A stretch of 64,000 nucleotides of DNA from a virus (taxonomy: Duplodnaviria; Heunggongvirae; Uroviricota; Caudoviricetes): positions 3,554-67,553 of the IMG/VR virus record IMGVR_UViG_2541047850_000005. The stretch is one strand, 5' to 3'. The notes beneath the pieces were generated by a model. The model did no database searches. It was not told where the DNA came from and saw only the letters and a program-made list of their open reading frames with translations. This document shows, one piece after another, positions 19,187 to 22,588 of this stretch. The position numbers and the translations under genes are program-made. The number at the start of each line of letters is the position of its first letter. Position 1 is the stretch's first letter.

Positions 19187-19756
19187 TCAATTAGAGCTTT
19201 GAAAGGCTTTGTGTGGCTGTGTTGCGAGGTTATGTCGATGGCTTAACTCACGCATCATGTCTTCAAAGCGACTCTTTGTGTCGTCGAGTTGGTCAGCCAT
19301 TGCTCCTAAAAGCTGACGAACTACCATCGGATCGTCGCTGTTTAGTGATGGCATTTTATAACCCGCCTGAGAAGACATCAGATTGAATGCAGACATCAAC
19401 ATCGTTAGAGAGGATTTAAGCCCGGCAATTTCACGATCTTTGCTGGCAATAATCGTCTCACTTTTGTTACTGTCATGAGTTCCTTGAGTCTCGCTCACCA
19501 TATCCAAAGTCGCCTGCAACTTATCAGCGCGCTCTTTTTCAGCAAGATAATGAACACCGAAATGATGTGCTAAAGCTACAACCTGAGTTGGCTCTTCAAA
19601 GGTGGACTCAAAATTAAGTGCTGTAACCACTCTCTCAAAAATGGAAACGTCTTCTATTCCTCGAAGAATGGCTAACATTTTGACCAGTTCATTAGCATCC
19701 ATTTCTTCGAATAAGGCGTTTTGTTCATCAGCTATCGCTTTGCATTTCTTGCACAT
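19187..19756 (-). CDS. hypothetical protein (189 aa)
   Basis: Motif-1 promoter (19774-19789) and leader AGGAAAAACACATG. Confidence 0.65.
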   Translation of the reverse strand: MCKKCKAIADEQNALFEEMDANELVKMLAILRGIEDVSIFERVVTALNFESTFEEPTQVVALAHHFGVHYLAEKERADKLQATLDMVSETQGTHDSNKSETIIASKDREIAGLKSSLTMLMSAFNLMSSQAGYKMPSLNSDDPMVVRQLLGAMADQLDDTKSRFEDMMRELSHRHNLATQPHKAFQSSN

Positions 19757-19895: not shown

Positions 19896-20054
19896 TTAAC
19901 ACGTTGCTTTACGGACTAGCGGATAAGCGAAGTAGATCGCCAGACCAATGAGGACGCCATCAGAAATGACAGACATCATCTTTCCCGTAAAATCCACCAA
20001 CACCGCCATCACCAGAAGAGCAATGACGGTCACAAGCCGGAATCTCTCAAGCAT
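19896..20054 (-). CDS. small hydrophobic protein (52 aa), below ORF-track cutoff
   Basis: MLERFRLVTVIALLVMAVLVDFTGKMMSVISDGVLIGLAIYFAYPLVRKATC*. The ATG overlaps the TerB-like stop (TAATG). Confidence 0.45.
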   Translation of the reverse strand: MLERFRLVTVIALLVMAVLVDFTGKMMSVISDGVLIGLAIYFAYPLVRKATC

Positions 20055-20479
20055 TAGAGATAAGCATCCAGTGACAACTGAAGCGCCTGGGCGATCTTTT
20101 TCAGCGCCTGCTCTTCTGGTTCATCAATGCCGTCTTGGTCGGCAATATCAAGGCACAGACAAAGTACATCTACTGCATCATCAGTCCCGGCCACATCCGC
20201 CAGCTCACGTAAAGCCTGGGCATTAGCACGGCGCGGTGAGGCTTCGTATTGAGCGCGGATATTGGCGCTCATCTGGGCAATCTCACCAGCAAAAGGAGAA
20301 AATGCAGGCAGAGCTGCAATTGTTTTCTCAAGAATGGAAATTTCTTTTGCATCGCATGTACCGTTGGCATAGGAGATCATGTACCCACCCCACACGGTGG
20401 CTTCAACCGCATCACGGTTCTCCATTTTTTTGACTTCGATAACTGCTTTACGAGTTTTCTTTTTGAAGAAACCTAACAT
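20054..20479 (-). CDS. TerB-like domain protein (141 aa)
   Basis: Helical protein with DQDGIDEPEEQAL, resembling the TerB acidic motif. Motif-1 promoter and conserved leader upstream. Confidence 0.55.
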   Translation of the reverse strand: MLGFFKKKTRKAVIEVKKMENRDAVEATVWGGYMISYANGTCDAKEISILEKTIAALPAFSPFAGEIAQMSANIRAQYEASPRRANAQALRELADVAGTDDAVDVLCLCLDIADQDGIDEPEEQALKKIAQALQLSLDAYL

Positions 20480-20572
20480 GTGTTTTCCTTTTGTTATTTG
20501 TCAAAACAAGTTGTTTTCTAGTTAAATAAATTGCTTACGCAAAGGCGGTCAATGCATATGCACTAACAACCG

Positions 20573-20761
20573 TCAGAAATAACCAAGTACCGAACCGACT
20601 GGAAAAATAAAAATCCCAACTACACGAGCCAAGGTCATGCCAGCCTGAAACTGGAGATCGCCAGAGCAAACAAGTTTTATAATGTTCGATACCCAACCGG
20701 CGGCCATGAGGGCAAGAATTGCCAGCCAAATTTTTCCAAAGTGATTTGAAAACCAGTTCAT
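20573..20761 (-). CDS. small membrane protein (62 aa, two hydrophobic segments)
   Basis: The ATG overlaps the stop of the embedded ORF 20758..21009 (ATGA). Confidence 0.55.
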   Translation of the reverse strand: MNWFSNHFGKIWLAILALMAAGWVSNIIKLVCSGDLQFQAGMTLARVVGIFIFPVGSVLGYF

Positions 20762-21009
20762 ACAACCGCCTTAGTCACAGCATGATCCTGAGTAACTGGA
20801 TGAACTTGAGGTATCGCATCCACCGTCATCCCATCCAGAGTGACAGGACGCTCTGCTGGAGTGGTGGTAATTGTCGTCGACGGAGGTGTGGTGATGGATG
20901 AATCCGGCATCAAAAGGCTCTGGCCGGCTGGAACGGCTACCGTCGCCAGTGAAACTATAATGAGAACGTAGGCCATTGGTTTCAGCCTCTTTCTTTGAAA
21001 ATTTTCCAT
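20758..21009 (-). CDS. alternative-frame ORF embedded in 20771..21265 (TM segment plus Pro/Thr-rich, 83 aa)
   Basis: AAGGA SD 9 nt upstream and a 4-nt ATGA overlap with the next gene. Only one of the two frames may be real. Confidence 0.3.
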   Translation of the reverse strand: MENFQRKRLKPMAYVLIIVSLATVAVPAGQSLLMPDSSITTPPSTTITTTPAERPVTLDGMTVDAIPQVHPVTQDHAVTKAVV

Positions 21010-21265
21010 TCGAACTGTCCTTGTTGTTTTTCTCCTTCACTAAAGGCCGTGCATTTTTCGCTTGGTGTGAAGAACCAGAGGTAACAATCGCCCCCACGTT
21101 CGCAACAACTGACGCTTGCTTATCTAAACGTTCATTCAGCAACCGAACGGTAGTCTCAAGTTCATCAAGACGTGACAGAACACGACCGCTAAATAATTCG
21201 GCCAAAATTTGACGTAGTGAACGAGGACGTTTAGTTGCAGAAGTGAAATAGGTTTGACGTGCCAT
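20771..21265 (-). CDS. hypothetical protein with coiled-coil N-terminus and Ser/His/Cys-rich tail (164 aa)
   Basis: ATG 21265 with GGAG 6-7 nt upstream. Tail ..HHHTSVDDNYHHSS..GGCDTSSSSSYSGSCCD. Confidence 0.5.
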   Translation of the reverse strand: MARQTYFTSATKRPRSLRQILAELFSGRVLSRLDELETTVRLLNERLDKQASVVANVGAIVTSGSSHQAKNARPLVKEKNNKDSSNGKFSKKEAETNGLRSHYSFTGDGSRSSRPEPFDAGFIHHHTSVDDNYHHSSRASCHSGWDDGGCDTSSSSSYSGSCCD

Positions 21266-21410
21266 GTGGACTCCATCCAGTGTCATAAAGAGTTGCGGCT
21301 GGCGATTGCCAGCCGCCTTTCTCGTTCCATCCTGGAACTGTGTCTTACCGACACATTGTCATCCTGACGCCGATAAGATACATGATTTATAATGATAGGT
21401 AAACACTTAC

Positions 21411-22004
21411 TTACTGCTTGTTATAAACAAAACCAATATCTTTCTTGTGAGGCATATCTGCTGCGGAAAAAGCTGCGATCTTCGCGAGTCGATCACATAT
21501 TTCATTTTCACGATGCCCGGCGTGACCTTTAACCCACTTCCAGCGAACATTATGTCGACTTGCGGCCTCATCCAGACGCTTCCACAGATCAACATTCTTT
21601 ACCGGTTTTTTGTCAGAAGTCATCCATCCATTGCGTTTCCACCATTTCATCCACTGTGTCATGCCGTTTTTCAGATACTGGCTATCAGAGTGCAAAATAA
21701 CGTTGCATGGATATTTCAAACGCTCCAGCCCGATAAGTGCCCCCATCATCTCCATGCGGTTATTGGTGGTGCTATGAAAACCATCTGAGAACTCGCGTTC
21801 CTCACCACGATACTGAAGAACGATACCGTAACCGCCCGGGCCACCCGGATTTTTAAGGCAAGAGCCATCACTGAAGATTTTCACGGTTTTAAGCTGGGGA
21901 TTGAACTCTACGACAGGCGTTGTGGGATTGGTACGGGGAGAATTTTTGTTTTTGGCTTTTTTGCGAGTTTTTGCTTGCGATCGGGCTGGTGTCTTCGTCG
22001 TCAT
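21411..22004 (-). CDS. rnhA: ribonuclease HI with a basic N-terminal extension
   Basis: [25 protein letters not shown] and [17 protein letters not shown] 22004 with an AGGAG SD. Confidence 0.9.
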
Positions 22005-22588
22005 ATAAACTCCTGAATCAAGCGCCGCGCCGATTTTTTTTTCCTCGCGCGTGCGCACACGCGTGCGTGTTAATAATTATTAAAATAAACAAATTACTTC
22101 CCAGAACAGGTTTTTATAAACCTGAACTGAACGAACGAAGTGAGTGAAGTTCACCTCGAACGAAGTGAGAGGTTGTCTTTTCAGGTAATACTCTCCCAGG
22201 GAGGTGAGTATAAAATTCCTCACCAACCTGGTCGTTTCATAACCTGAAAAGTTATGGTCTAAGTCTACTGCCAGCTTAGACTTGGGAAGTTATGGATGAC
22301 AGCACCCCAGAACCGAGATCTTCCCACACTTTATGAAGGGGAGTACTGGATTCAACCTCTCGAAACACCCCAGACTCGACAATCATAAAGTGACCCTTGT
22401 CTCTGCTCACTTTGGTTCCCCCTTCCCCGACACCTAAACGGCACCGGTTCTACGCTGGTAGTGAGCTTTTTAAACCTGACGCCAGTGACGCTTACCCCCA
22501 CCCATCAGGTCGAGCCTCCAGTCTACGACTGGAAACAATCAGATCTTAGCACTTACAATTCACTTTATGAATAGTTTGTACTTATCTA
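22005..22588 (-). other. ORF-free, hairpin-dense region (candidate long leader, ncRNA or origin)
   Basis: No ORF of 60 aa or more lies within about 22148-22588 on either strand. At least 6 stems of 6-7 bp, repeated words CATAAAGTG and TCTGGGGTG, motif-2 site at its upstream end. Confidence 0.35.

Follow-up and report, generated by a model that had tools for sequence, protein, structure and literature searches.

The analysed window, a 64,000-nucleotide stretch of a tailed-phage (Caudoviricetes) genome, matches Escherichia phage PhiR41_1 with 100% identity; this phage is an SSU5-like phage-plasmid. The features considered here all lie on its minus strand and are listed in Table 1. We re-derived the ORFs from the window sequence, and every placement and junction that an earlier note on this DNA had proposed was reproduced. 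Three of the genes, designated L, E and M62, sit within a run of co-directional genes for nucleotide metabolism and replication and are followed by a TerB-domain gene and a small membrane protein gene. The earlier note had left it undecided whether the overlap of L and E is genuine overprinting or an artefact; as described below, the comparative evidence favors genuine overprinting.

Table 1. Coordinates of genes and regulatory features at the L/E locus (window positions).
Feature	Position	Strand	Details
Promoter-like site ("motif-2")	21375-21403	minus	TTTACC (21403-21398), 17-nt spacer, TATCTT (21380-21375)
Structured 5' leader of the putative L/E/M62 operon	21266-21368	minus	four hairpins, H1-H4
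H1	21368-21358	minus	GGA loop
H2	21354-21340	minus	leader hairpin
H3	21338-21324	minus	GGA loop
H4	21316-21295	minus	GC-rich terminator-like stem, then AACUCUUUAU
L SD (GGAG)	21274-21271	minus	SD region UGGAUGGAG
L	21265-20771	minus	ATG to TAA, 164 aa
E	21009-20758	minus	ATG to TGA, 83 aa; +1 frame of L, embedded in L
Dual-coding overlap L/E	20771-21009	minus	239 nt
M62	20761-20573	minus	62 aa, two hydrophobic segments
Operator-like palindrome ("motif-1")	20504-20516	minus	AAACAACTTGTTT, ~24 nt upstream of TerB start
TerB-domain protein (P1 TciA-like)	20479-20054	minus	141 aa
DUF3927/P1 TciB-like small membrane protein	20054-19896	minus	52 aa

L is annotated in public records and belongs to phrog_10411. 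The PhiR41_1, Cyrano and RefSeq annotations lack E (phrog_15659) because annotation pipelines forbid long same-strand overlaps. These two PHROGs families and that of M62 (phrog_6006) are without known function. Sequence searches of Pfam, NCBIfam, PADLOC and PDB returned no match for L, E or M62, and no homologue with a known function was found for any of them in family, PDB and large protein searches. Only 22 relatives of L were present among 1.84 billion representative proteins, and when large protein sets were queried with L, E, M62 and a profile of L, the matches were confined to the same phage-plasmid family. Judged by these searches, the L/E/M62 module is an ORFan of the SSU5-type phage group. 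A literature search found no paper on the L/E overlap. Within the group the module is common: it occurs in 210 of 5,426 complete E. coli genomes and in ~680 PLSDB plasmids, with at least 80% of E covered by tblastn in 676 of 679 matching plasmids. L and E are conserved across Escherichia, Salmonella, Klebsiella, Enterobacter, Citrobacter, Cronobacter and others, as well as in unidentified hosts.

Both reading frames of the overlap are open in ~55 distinct sequences from at least nine lineages, including distant ones in which the L N-terminus is only 15–37% identical. In 52 distinct sequences (73 loci) the overlap measures 239–266 nt and the L stop lies 13 nt ahead of the E stop; three further distant lineages, one of them with 41% GC, also keep both frames open. 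The third frame of the overlap contains 2–7 stops in the 52 sequences and 9 stops in the 41% GC lineage. Homologues with a stop in one frame, which the earlier note had named among the observations that would count against overprinting, were absent among the ~55 distinct sequences, and the exceptions to dual openness amount to two frameshift variants among 75 loci (the genome-collection scan contributed only two loci). The large protein searches with L, E, M62 and the L profile revealed no lineage with L but without E, or with E but without L. M62 is absent in L077 and L079, two distant lineages that retain L and E. On this distribution, the universal part of the module is L and E only.

We then considered how often such openness would arise by chance. 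In simulations with random synonymous codons, the probability that L is open given the E protein was 0.03–0.12 per lineage over nine lineages. On the tree ~10.3 L-stop-creating substitutions were expected and none was observed (Poisson P ~3e-5), with P = 0.02 when the test was restricted to E-synonymous changes. Two blocks of the overlap, CCAATGGCCTAC (20979-20968) and CTCTGGATGGGATG (20840-20827), are invariant in all 52 distinct sequences, E-synonymous sites included. The synonymous-site comparison in homologues that the earlier note had suggested gave a qualified result. The overlap is indeed more conserved than its neighbors, with an E-synonymous rate of 1.82 versus flanking synonymous rates of 2.36 and 3.54 and a codon identity at conserved residues of 0.53 versus 0.28–0.48 in neighboring genes, but synonymous sites are unsaturated and the excess is modest. 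Because of this lack of saturation, an apparent 2-fold excess of L-frame identity over the expectation from E is inflated by shared ancestry and is supportive only. RNA structure was tried as the cause of the invariant synonymous sites and rejected: a hairpin can be drawn around CTCTGGATGGGATG, but only one of its pairs is compensatory, its covariation term is −0.16 and its stability is unexceptional (z −1.3). Such a hairpin could not account for maintenance of the ORFs.

If the annotated gene L alone were real, E would be an accidental open frame, as the annotation of only L in most genome records might suggest. Given the L tail, E is indeed open by chance with a probability of 0.2–0.67 in some lineages. 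However, the range over all lineages is 0.014–0.67, the value of 0.014 being that of the 41% GC lineage, and the tree shows no E-stop-creating substitution, against an expectation of ~5.8. Substitutions in the overlap also follow the periodicity of E: entropy at the three L codon positions is 0.64/0.45/1.02 upstream of the overlap versus 0.70/0.53/0.47 inside it, where L third positions are the least variable. E is under purifying selection, with an omega (dNN/dNS) of 0.54 and a 95% CI (0.40–0.71) that lies below 1, and its SD, start, basic N-terminus and hydrophobic segment are kept out to the most distant lineage. An accidental E is thus already contradicted by the comparative data, and we regard it as very improbable; by the same data, the dominant selective constraint in the overlap is that on E.

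The AAGGA SD that the earlier note had assigned to E is present at 21022-21018, 8 nt ahead of the E start, and is conserved in relatives. Across lineages the E SD (AAGGA, GGAG or GGAAGG) lies 7–9 nt before a conserved ATG, which is replaced by a GTG in L079, and no conserved RNA structure that masks the E start was detected. E would accordingly initiate at its own SD and AUG within L, in the +1 frame. The TM-like segment and Pro/Thr-rich tail described before are recognizable in the product, which has a basic N-terminus, a hydrophobic segment at residues 12–26, a Pro/Thr-rich linker and a conserved LDGMxxDxIP motif; its AF2 model (helices and disorder) is of low confidence. Because of the basic N-terminus and the single hydrophobic segment, E would be exported or anchored N-in/C-out, with the segment acting as a predicted signal peptide or membrane anchor and with a Pro/Thr-rich periplasmic part that ends in LDGMxxDxIP.

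Several database proteins read through L and then E (P0012, P0014, P0023, P0056, P0061), which is what would be seen if programmed ribosomal frameshifting yielded one L–E fusion protein. These fusion cluster representatives are, however, mostly singletons or small clusters, and two of the fusion junctions fall at homopolymers (TTTT, AAAAA), as would result from sequencing errors or rare mutants. In addition, the E frame of the E. coli clade is closed 9 codons upstream of the ATG, E has its own conserved SD and start, and a +1 shift site is not evident. Based on the homopolymers at the fusion junctions and the closed upstream frame we rejected programmed frameshifting, to which we assign next to no likelihood.

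Turning to L, an in-frame ATG upstream of its start, at 21286, is not conserved in relatives. The coiled-coil N-terminus and Ser/His/Cys-rich tail proposed in the earlier note fit both the structure prediction and the tail composition: the N-terminal helical/coiled-coil part spans approximately residues 17–66, AF2 predicts a helix at residues 28–66 with pLDDT up to 91, and the disordered Ser/His/Cys/Asp-rich tail (residues 86–164) has pLDDT below 50. L would reside in the cytoplasm, its N-terminal half being helical and of coiled-coil type and its tail disordered. As a side observation, the coil gave a non-significant match to SlyX (E 0.16).

The tail of L requires separate consideration. Its omega (dNN/dSN) of 0.80 has a CI of 0.59–1.20 and is indistinguishable from 1, and hence not significant at the amino-acid level. 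A composition of S, G, D, H and C, as in the L tail, is the typical −1-frame output of a Pro/Thr/Leu/Val-rich gene. Together with the predicted disorder and with an L stop placed within the M62 SD region, T(A/G)AGG, these properties would fit a situation in which the tail is a translated but functionless by-product of the E frame and the proteins that count are E and just the N-terminal half of L. The tail would then be kept open for ribosomes to pass through the overlap, either to reach the M62 start 9 nt past the L stop or to set internal initiation at E. What speaks against such a role is that the L and E stops are still 10–13 nt apart in L077 and L079, where there is no M62. Moreover, the tail is never interrupted, and several of its features survive deep divergence: the C-x-SGW(D/N) motif, the run of His and the terminal CD. 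The most distant L homologues still end in CD, carry either a run of His or a stretch rich in His, and have SGW(N/D), which in P0067 reads SGGD. Four Cys are found in most L tails, one of them lying elsewhere in the E. coli clade, and NGLR is kept too, though it is invariant only in enterobacterial clades. Cys141 is conserved (TGT/TGC) despite changes in the overlapping E residues (PV/SA), and the T that forms the L stop is invariant even though it is an E-synonymous site. We consider a functionless tail unlikely; as a peptide, the L tail is probably constrained only weakly. In this case the tail would be kept open with a few motifs retained (NGLR, the His run, C-x-SGW-D/N and the C-terminal C-D) and would otherwise be free to vary.

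Overprinting of the 239-nt stretch is well supported at the level of sequence comparison because of the selection on E, the E-frame periodicity and the conservation of the E SD and start, and because the L tail is uninterrupted and keeps its motifs. Translation of both frames may be predicted from the same signatures.

Lambda Rz/Rz1 and phiX174 E within D are known phage examples of a small gene that is nested completely within a larger one in the +1 frame and has an SD and start of its own. The likeness to the Rz/Rz1 type extends further, as the protein from the embedded gene carries a hydrophobic segment at its N-terminus ahead of a Pro-rich body, and relatives conserve both frames. With a coiled-coil protein encoded by the larger gene and a small two-TM protein (M62) coming next, L and E could be taken for an embedded spanin pair or another lysis part. 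Unlike Rz, however, L is no membrane protein: none of its 15-residue stretches exceeds a hydropathy of 1.29, which indicates that a TM segment is absent, and AF2 depicts a soluble helix. E, unlike Rz1, is not a lipoprotein, since it has no Cys in the window and most lineages and therefore no lipobox; where a Cys is present (Klebsiella ITIC, L079 LAVC), the residue at −1 is other than G, A or S. Sequence similarity is absent, and the pair is outside the lysis cassette. In Cyrano the annotated holin, endolysin, Rz and Rz1 genes are CYRAN_22-25, 52 kb away from L (CYRAN_83), and L/E lie among early DNA-metabolism genes. As the defining features are contradicted, the spanin or lysis role was rejected; we would give it hardly any chance of being correct.

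At the downstream end of the overlap, the E stop and the M62 start share an ATGA at 20761-20758, as first noted for the 62-aa two-TM gene. All enterobacterial clades retain M62, with the junction reading ATGA or GTGA. A single mRNA would bear L, E and M62. Because its AUG overlaps the E stop (AUGA) and sits 9 nt after the L stop, M62 is probably translated by termination-reinitiation. This coupling, like the topologies of E and M62, is a prediction from gene arrangement and hydrophobicity.

Upstream of L, the earlier note had proposed a promoter at motif-2. The hexamers TTTACC-17-TATCTT are conserved in all aligned lineages, but the site occurs as a single copy in the window and falls below the threshold of the sigma-70 scan, because only 8 of 12 positions match the consensus. 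We infer that it may function as a promoter. Between this site and L lies a leader whose conservation exceeds that of coding DNA. Of the cells in its four-hairpin structure, 95.7% are paired, compared with 24–51% in slid controls, and pairs changed on both sides number 10 versus 4.3 in shuffles (0/500). H3 is maintained by compensatory changes with GGA still in its loop, and H4 is followed by a weak, interrupted U-tract. A covariance model of the leader found one copy (126 bits) and no second one.

The loops of the leader resemble binding sites of CsrA, which typically binds GGA in two hairpin loops, with one site often overlapping the SD (PMC11052181). The leader has this arrangement: GGA is found in the loops of H1 and H3, in both cases as CAGGAUG (21366-21360 and 21334-21328), and again at the SD of L. 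CAGGATG is not enriched in the window as a whole (9 copies versus 7.3 expected). No above-threshold Rfam match was obtained for the leader; the sole match was CsrB (RF00018) at 17.6 bits and E 0.051, versus a gathering score of 71. CsrA-controlled leaders of the glgC, pgaA and evgA types and the CsrB/RsmZ decoys share with this leader GGA in short hairpin loops, the CAGGAUG context, several sites of which one overlaps the SD, a strong 3' stem and a weak match to the CsrB model. It differs from CsrB/RsmZ in a score far below gathering, in having only two or three sites, in its position upstream of a phage ORFan operon and in that its binding is predicted. By these measures it is not a member of the CsrB family, and the likeness lies only in the architecture of the binding sites. 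Motif resemblance and the sub-threshold Rfam match suggest that host CsrA may control the operon, possibly together with the terminator-like H4; CsrA would act on the leader via the two CAGGAUG loops and the GGA in the SD.

Taken together, the ORF structure observed and its conservation, along with the signs of selection and the covariation in the RNA, lead us to an explanation that we hold to be probable as a whole: L and E would be a genuine same-strand overlapping pair, old within SSU5-like phage-plasmids, and part of an L/E/M62 operon with a structured leader.

The two genes that follow M62 belong to known families. The earlier assignment of a TerB-like protein is upheld by a Pfam TerB match (PF05099) of 26.2 bits against a cutoff of 24.4 (E 1e-5); the protein also matches phrog_632 over its full length at 2.8e-61 and is annotated in Cyrano as 'P1 TciA-like'. 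The 52-aa ORF had been called unannotated, which is incorrect, as it is annotated in public records and belongs to a known DUF3927/TciB-like family (Pfam DUF3927, 47.4 bits against a cutoff of 25, E 1.9e-12; phrog_1470, TciB-like, 7.8e-21). Its start does share one base with the TerB stop (TAATG), as claimed, and this adjacent, 1-nt-overlapping TerB–DUF3927 pairing recurs in other phage-plasmids. The palindrome AAACAACTTGTTT upstream of TerB has 29 strand-matches (14 sites) in the window versus 3.5 expected, a number reached in 0 of 100 shuffles, with copies lying 10–30 nt upstream of start codons; the motif is found upstream of TerB in L077 and L079 as well. In SSU5, CT29 and an Enterobacter plasmid the TerB/DUF3927 genes are replaced by a Rha/antirepressor gene. 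The pair thus has in common with P1 tciA-tciB the TerB and DUF3927 family membership and the adjacent 1-nt overlap. By its family assignments it is the known P1 TciA/TciB pair, a separate, swappable module that its own upstream palindrome and the antirepressor substitution in several relatives place outside the L/E module.

This separation bears on the function that the earlier note had envisaged, a single envelope-associated system of three small membrane proteins and TerB. Such a system is unsupported as stated, since TerB/DUF3927 form a separate module and M62 is absent in L077 and L079. In RNA-seq of the LF82 lysogen that carries Cyrano, CYRAN_83-86 are at background level; exclusion as a lysogen-expressed function is therefore unlikely, and a role as lysogenic moron was likewise set aside as unsupported by these data. 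PADLOC defence-system models gave no match for L, E, M62, TerB, DUF3927 or a 189-aa neighbor. An envelope-directed function of the L/E/M62 module is plausible because E has a predicted signal or anchor and M62 has two TM segments. We infer the timing of its expression and its cellular target as follows: the module would act during lytic growth, because it is silent in lysogens and located among early DNA-metabolism genes, and most likely at the inner membrane or periplasm. A bolder proposal is that L/E form an ancient dual-coding switch peculiar to SSU5-type phage-plasmids. The same codons would yield a cytoplasmic coiled-coil protein, whose His/Cys tail binds metal, and a periplasmic peptide that is secreted or anchored, in a ratio set by ribosome traffic, and host CsrA would gate the unit as a whole through a new class of phage leader RNA. 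We think this rather unlikely. If true, it would tie a membrane-directed lytic step, such as superinfection exclusion or lysis timing, to the metabolic state of the host.

Non-trivial overlaps that annotation pipelines skip, with an ORFan-like distribution, have also been described in E. coli by means of Ribo-seq and RNA-seq (laoB, ano, pop and the like). Most of these are antisense and young, with weak conservation, whereas L and E are on the same strand and purifying selection on the embedded frame is clear. E would be a conserved gene missed in the annotations of SSU5-like phage-plasmids, which are frequent in clinical Enterobacteriaceae, and the practical value of the finding lies in a corrected gene map and in specific experiments. 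The leader with its CsrB-type hairpins is a candidate new cis-regulatory RNA family and suggests that gene expression of the phage-plasmid may be tied to a global regulator of the host. Because L/E is deeply conserved, same-strand, embedded and outside a lysis cassette, it may serve as a clean test case on which dual-coding detection methods can be tried and the sharing of codons between two proteins studied, with one frame strongly constrained and the other mainly kept open with a few motifs.

The region that holds the overlapping genes is identical (100%) to that of Escherichia phage PhiR41_1, and is 96.5–98.3% identical to the corresponding regions of phage Cyrano (the pLF82 plasmid of E. 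coli LF82) and of two 'CMS-2020a' records, all of which are SSU5-like phage-plasmids. The gene coordinates in the earlier note were confirmed in the sequence, as were its AAGGA Shine-Dalgarno (SD) sequence for the embedded gene (E), the ATGA junction between E and the following gene M62, and the TAATG junction between the TerB and DUF3927 genes. Public records annotate the outer gene (L), M62, TerB and DUF3927 and leave out E.

Features of the L/E region and sites of the recurrent palindrome (window positions)
Feature	Position	Strand	Description
44-codon ORF	22276-22410	minus	upstream of RNase H; = CYRAN_81 of Cyrano
RNase H	ends 21411	minus	
Conserved leader upstream of L	21266-21403	minus	four hairpins, covariation
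L	21265-20771	minus	164 aa
AAGGA SD of E	21022-21018	minus	
E	21009-20758	minus	83 aa, +1 frame of L
M62	20761-20573	minus	62 aa, two hydrophobic segments
TerB-domain protein	20479-20054	minus	141 aa
DUF3927 protein	20054-19896	minus	52 aa
189-aa gene	19187-19756	minus	phrog_5508; after TciB; own palindrome copy
Palindrome, 14 sites	1795, 2560, 3463, 3947, 5497, 6175, 6226, 10149, 15232, 19775, 20504, 30722, 42175, 55852		13 nt each

With either the L or the E product as query, tblastn recovered the same ~680 PLSDB phage-plasmids and 12 phage records from Escherichia, Klebsiella, Enterobacter, Salmonella (including pHCM2 and SSU5), Citrobacter, Cronobacter and other hosts, with E covered over at least 80% of its length in 676 of 679 plasmids. 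We collected 75 loci and set aside two frameshift variants; the remaining 73 represent 52 distinct L/E sequences. The earlier note had pointed to a double open frame and left undecided whether it reflects overprinting or an artefact. Both frames are indeed open across 239–266 nt in 52 of 52 sequences, and in every one the L stop comes first and lies 13 nt from the E stop, while the third frame contains 2–7 stops across the overlap. Only 22 relatives of L were found when 1.84 billion representative proteins were searched with a profile. They include three more distant lineages (P0053, P0060 and P0067) whose contigs are syntenic, with L between RNase H and either M62 or TerB, and in which an E frame with the same features is again open. 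One distant lineage has 41% GC and nine stops in the third frame. No lineage with L lacking E, or E lacking L, was found among the loci and relatives collected, and in these comparisons L plus E is the invariant core of the module. The L genes of P0008, P0009, P0015 and locus L062 are chimeric, joining an N-terminal half of the CT29/SSU5 type to a tail of the E. coli clade type. Their breakpoints differ, which indicates recombination inside the gene and the overlap and complicates any single-tree analysis.

Selection was assessed from substitutions counted by parsimony on neighbour-joining trees, using an L-guided alignment that was back-translated. Variability at the three L codon positions follows the normal pattern 5' of the overlap (0.64/0.45/1.02 bits) and becomes 0.70/0.53/0.47 bits within it, indicating that the periodicity there changes to that of E. 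With the effect on the other frame held constant, omega is 0.54 for E (dNN/dNS; bootstrap 95% CI 0.40–0.71) and 0.80 for the L tail, residues 86–164 (dNN/dSN; CI 0.59–1.20). Changes in the overlap that are synonymous in E and non-synonymous in L amount to 1.82 per site; synonymous change per site is 2.36 in the L-only part and 3.54 in M62. Codon identity at residues conserved between lineages is 53% in the overlap as compared with 28–48% in neighbouring genes, and no E-stop-creating substitution was observed where 5.8 were expected. E is thus clearly selected as coding sequence, and we regard it as very probably a real gene that has mostly gone unannotated. The L tail peptide appears to be at most weakly constrained.

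The main rival explanation, which is possible, is that the L tail is open solely for ribosome traffic. The L frame is nonetheless maintained. When the E protein was held fixed and synonymous codons were randomized, L remained open in 3–12% of trials per lineage; the product of these probabilities over nine lineages is ~1e-11, a value that overstates significance since the lineages are not independent. On the tree, 0 L-stop-creating substitutions were observed as opposed to ~10.3 expected from class-specific rates (Poisson P ~3e-5), and those that are synonymous in E were likewise absent where 3.8 were expected (P = 0.02). Opposing the ribosome-traffic explanation, the ends of L and E lie 10–13 nt apart even where M62 is missing, and motifs of the L tail persist. 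Two blocks, CCAATGGCCTAC (NGLR in L, PMAY in E) and CTCTGGATGGGATG (SGWD in L, LDGM in E), are invariant in all 52 sequences, E-synonymous sites included. Cys141 of L stays TGT or TGC as the overlapping E residues switch between PV and SA, and the first T of the L stop codon, an E-synonymous site, never varies. Most L tails have four Cys residues, one of them differently placed in the E. coli clade, and the C-terminal end of the most distant L homologue still reads ...HHSHGHHHHYSGGDTGGYDSGCSDSSSSFSGCD. Between distant lineages, no part of L is better conserved than the overlap (41–44% identity versus 15–46% in the N-terminal half), as double constraint predicts. A pairwise test gave an L-frame identity about twice that expected from E alone, a figure inflated by incomplete saturation and hence supportive only. 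Taken together, we consider genuine dual coding of the overlap probable, and we lean, somewhat less firmly, toward the L tail being a selected product and not merely an open frame.

Two other explanations of the overlap were rejected. No conserved RNA structure was detected at the E start, and a hairpin placed around the second of the invariant blocks has hardly any covariation and an unremarkable folding energy. Five database proteins (P0012, P0014, P0023, P0056 and P0061) read L and then E; like loci L057 and L072, they are variants in which 1-nt indels fuse L to the E frame. Frameshift fusion of L to E was discarded given that fused variants are mostly singletons or small clusters, that two junctions fall at TTTT or A-run homopolymers, and that in the window's clade the E frame is closed nine codons 5' of the E ATG. 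The fused variants are probably sequencing errors; P0014, present on five contigs, could be a natural mutant.

Structure prediction gives L a confident helix at residues 28–66 (pLDDT up to 91) and a disordered tail, which is rich in Ser, Gly, Asp, His and Cys; L contains no transmembrane (TM) segment. E begins with MENFQRKRLKP; next come 15 hydrophobic residues (hydropathy 2.5), the sequence VPAGQ, a segment rich in Pro and Thr, and a conserved motif, LDGMxxDxIP...VT(K/E/D)A. Judged from sequence, its N-terminus would be either a signal peptide or a signal anchor in N-in orientation, with cleavage uncertain because the -3/-1/+1 residues differ among lineages. Met12 of E is Ile or Leu in distant lineages, where the SD and the first start are kept (as GTG in L079); the conserved start is this first one and not Met12. 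M62 has a strongly conserved core, GW-x-N-x3-L...GDL...G-x-T-x-ARV-x-G. Family and database searches with L, E and M62 gave no match to a family of known function. All three are present in PHROGs as function-unknown families (phrog_10411 for L, phrog_15659 for E from Met12, phrog_6006 for M62), so some annotators have called E.

In every enterobacterial clade M62 comes directly after E, joined to it by ATGA or GTGA. It is missing altogether in loci L077 and L079–L081, and in L039, L046 and L055 it is cut to 35–45 codons after a conserved MKWSF start, with L and E intact. TerB and DUF3927 are found in the E. coli, Klebsiella, Cronobacter and E. ludwigii types and are replaced by a Rha/antirepressor gene in SSU5, CT29 and an Enterobacter plasmid. 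They correspond to the tciA/tciB pair of P1, whose own function is conjectural. The single envelope system of three membrane proteins plus TerB proposed in the earlier note is thus only partly supported, as the TerB pair is a separate known module. The 189-aa gene adjoins this pair in relatives that have it and directly follows M62 in locus L082, which lacks it. The palindrome (A)GAAAACAA-N-TTGTTT has 29 strand-matches in the window versus 3.5 expected; most copies are gene-oriented and lie 10–30 nt 5' of a start codon, and it also precedes TerB in the distant relatives L077 and L079. The palindrome resembles an operator bound by a regulator of the phage, or else a promoter element specific to the phage, and two of its copies set TerB and the 189-aa gene apart from each other as units.

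The whole region is part of a long run of nucleotide-metabolism and replication genes that share one direction. In RNA-seq of LF82 lysogens CYRAN_83–86 (L, M62, TciA and TciB) are at background, as are structural genes, and the 13 morons of Cyrano do not include them (PMC9928086). A constitutive exclusion role in the lysogen was rejected on this background expression, and a spanin or lysis-cassette role was rejected since the annotated holin, endolysin, Rz and Rz1 genes lie 52 kb from L/E and L has no TM segment. From the lysogen expression and the gene context we infer that the module functions in lytic growth. We tentatively place its action at the inner membrane or periplasm, where E and M62 are predicted to reside. 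CYRAN_81 is expressed in LF82 lysogens ~12-fold over the prophage background (117 normalised reads versus 5–10 for its neighbours); its 44-codon equivalent is unannotated in PhiR41_1, where an opposite-strand ORF is annotated instead, and may encode a small protein or correspond to a non-coding RNA.

In the 145-nt gap between RNase H and L, conservation exceeds that of the coding sequences, and this extends to the most distant lineages. The gap contains, in order, TTTACC, a 17-nt spacer, TATCTT, four hairpins (H1–H4) and the SD of L. In a 25-sequence leader alignment 95.7% of cells are paired as compared with 24–51% in slid controls, and 10 pairs changed on both sides versus 4.3 in shuffles (0 of 500 shuffles). 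Compensatory changes are mostly in H2 and H3, with two covarying pairs at the loop end of H4; in L079 four pairs of H3 have changed, yet the hairpin re-forms and retains the loop GGA. H1 has a possible alternative partner in the U-rich stretch 3' of H4, and the data fit either pairing. H4 is a terminator-like GC stem, the loops of H1 and H3 are CAGGAUG, and the SD region of L is UGGAUGGAG. The CsrB repeat is CAGGA(U/C/A)G. CsrB is also the only Rfam match for the leader, at a sub-threshold score (17.6 bits, E 0.05), although the leader, single-copy in the window by covariance model, is not a member of that family. CsrA typically binds GGA in two hairpin loops, with one site often across the SD (PMC11052181). 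Given the CAGGAUG loops, the SD site and this binding pattern, we propose that CsrA would control L translation or termination at H4. The element may act as a leader that responds to CsrA, or may give rise to a short terminated RNA. The L/E pair belongs among the same-strand embedded genes of phages, an already known kind, and is accompanied here by a leader that is possibly a new cis-regulatory RNA.
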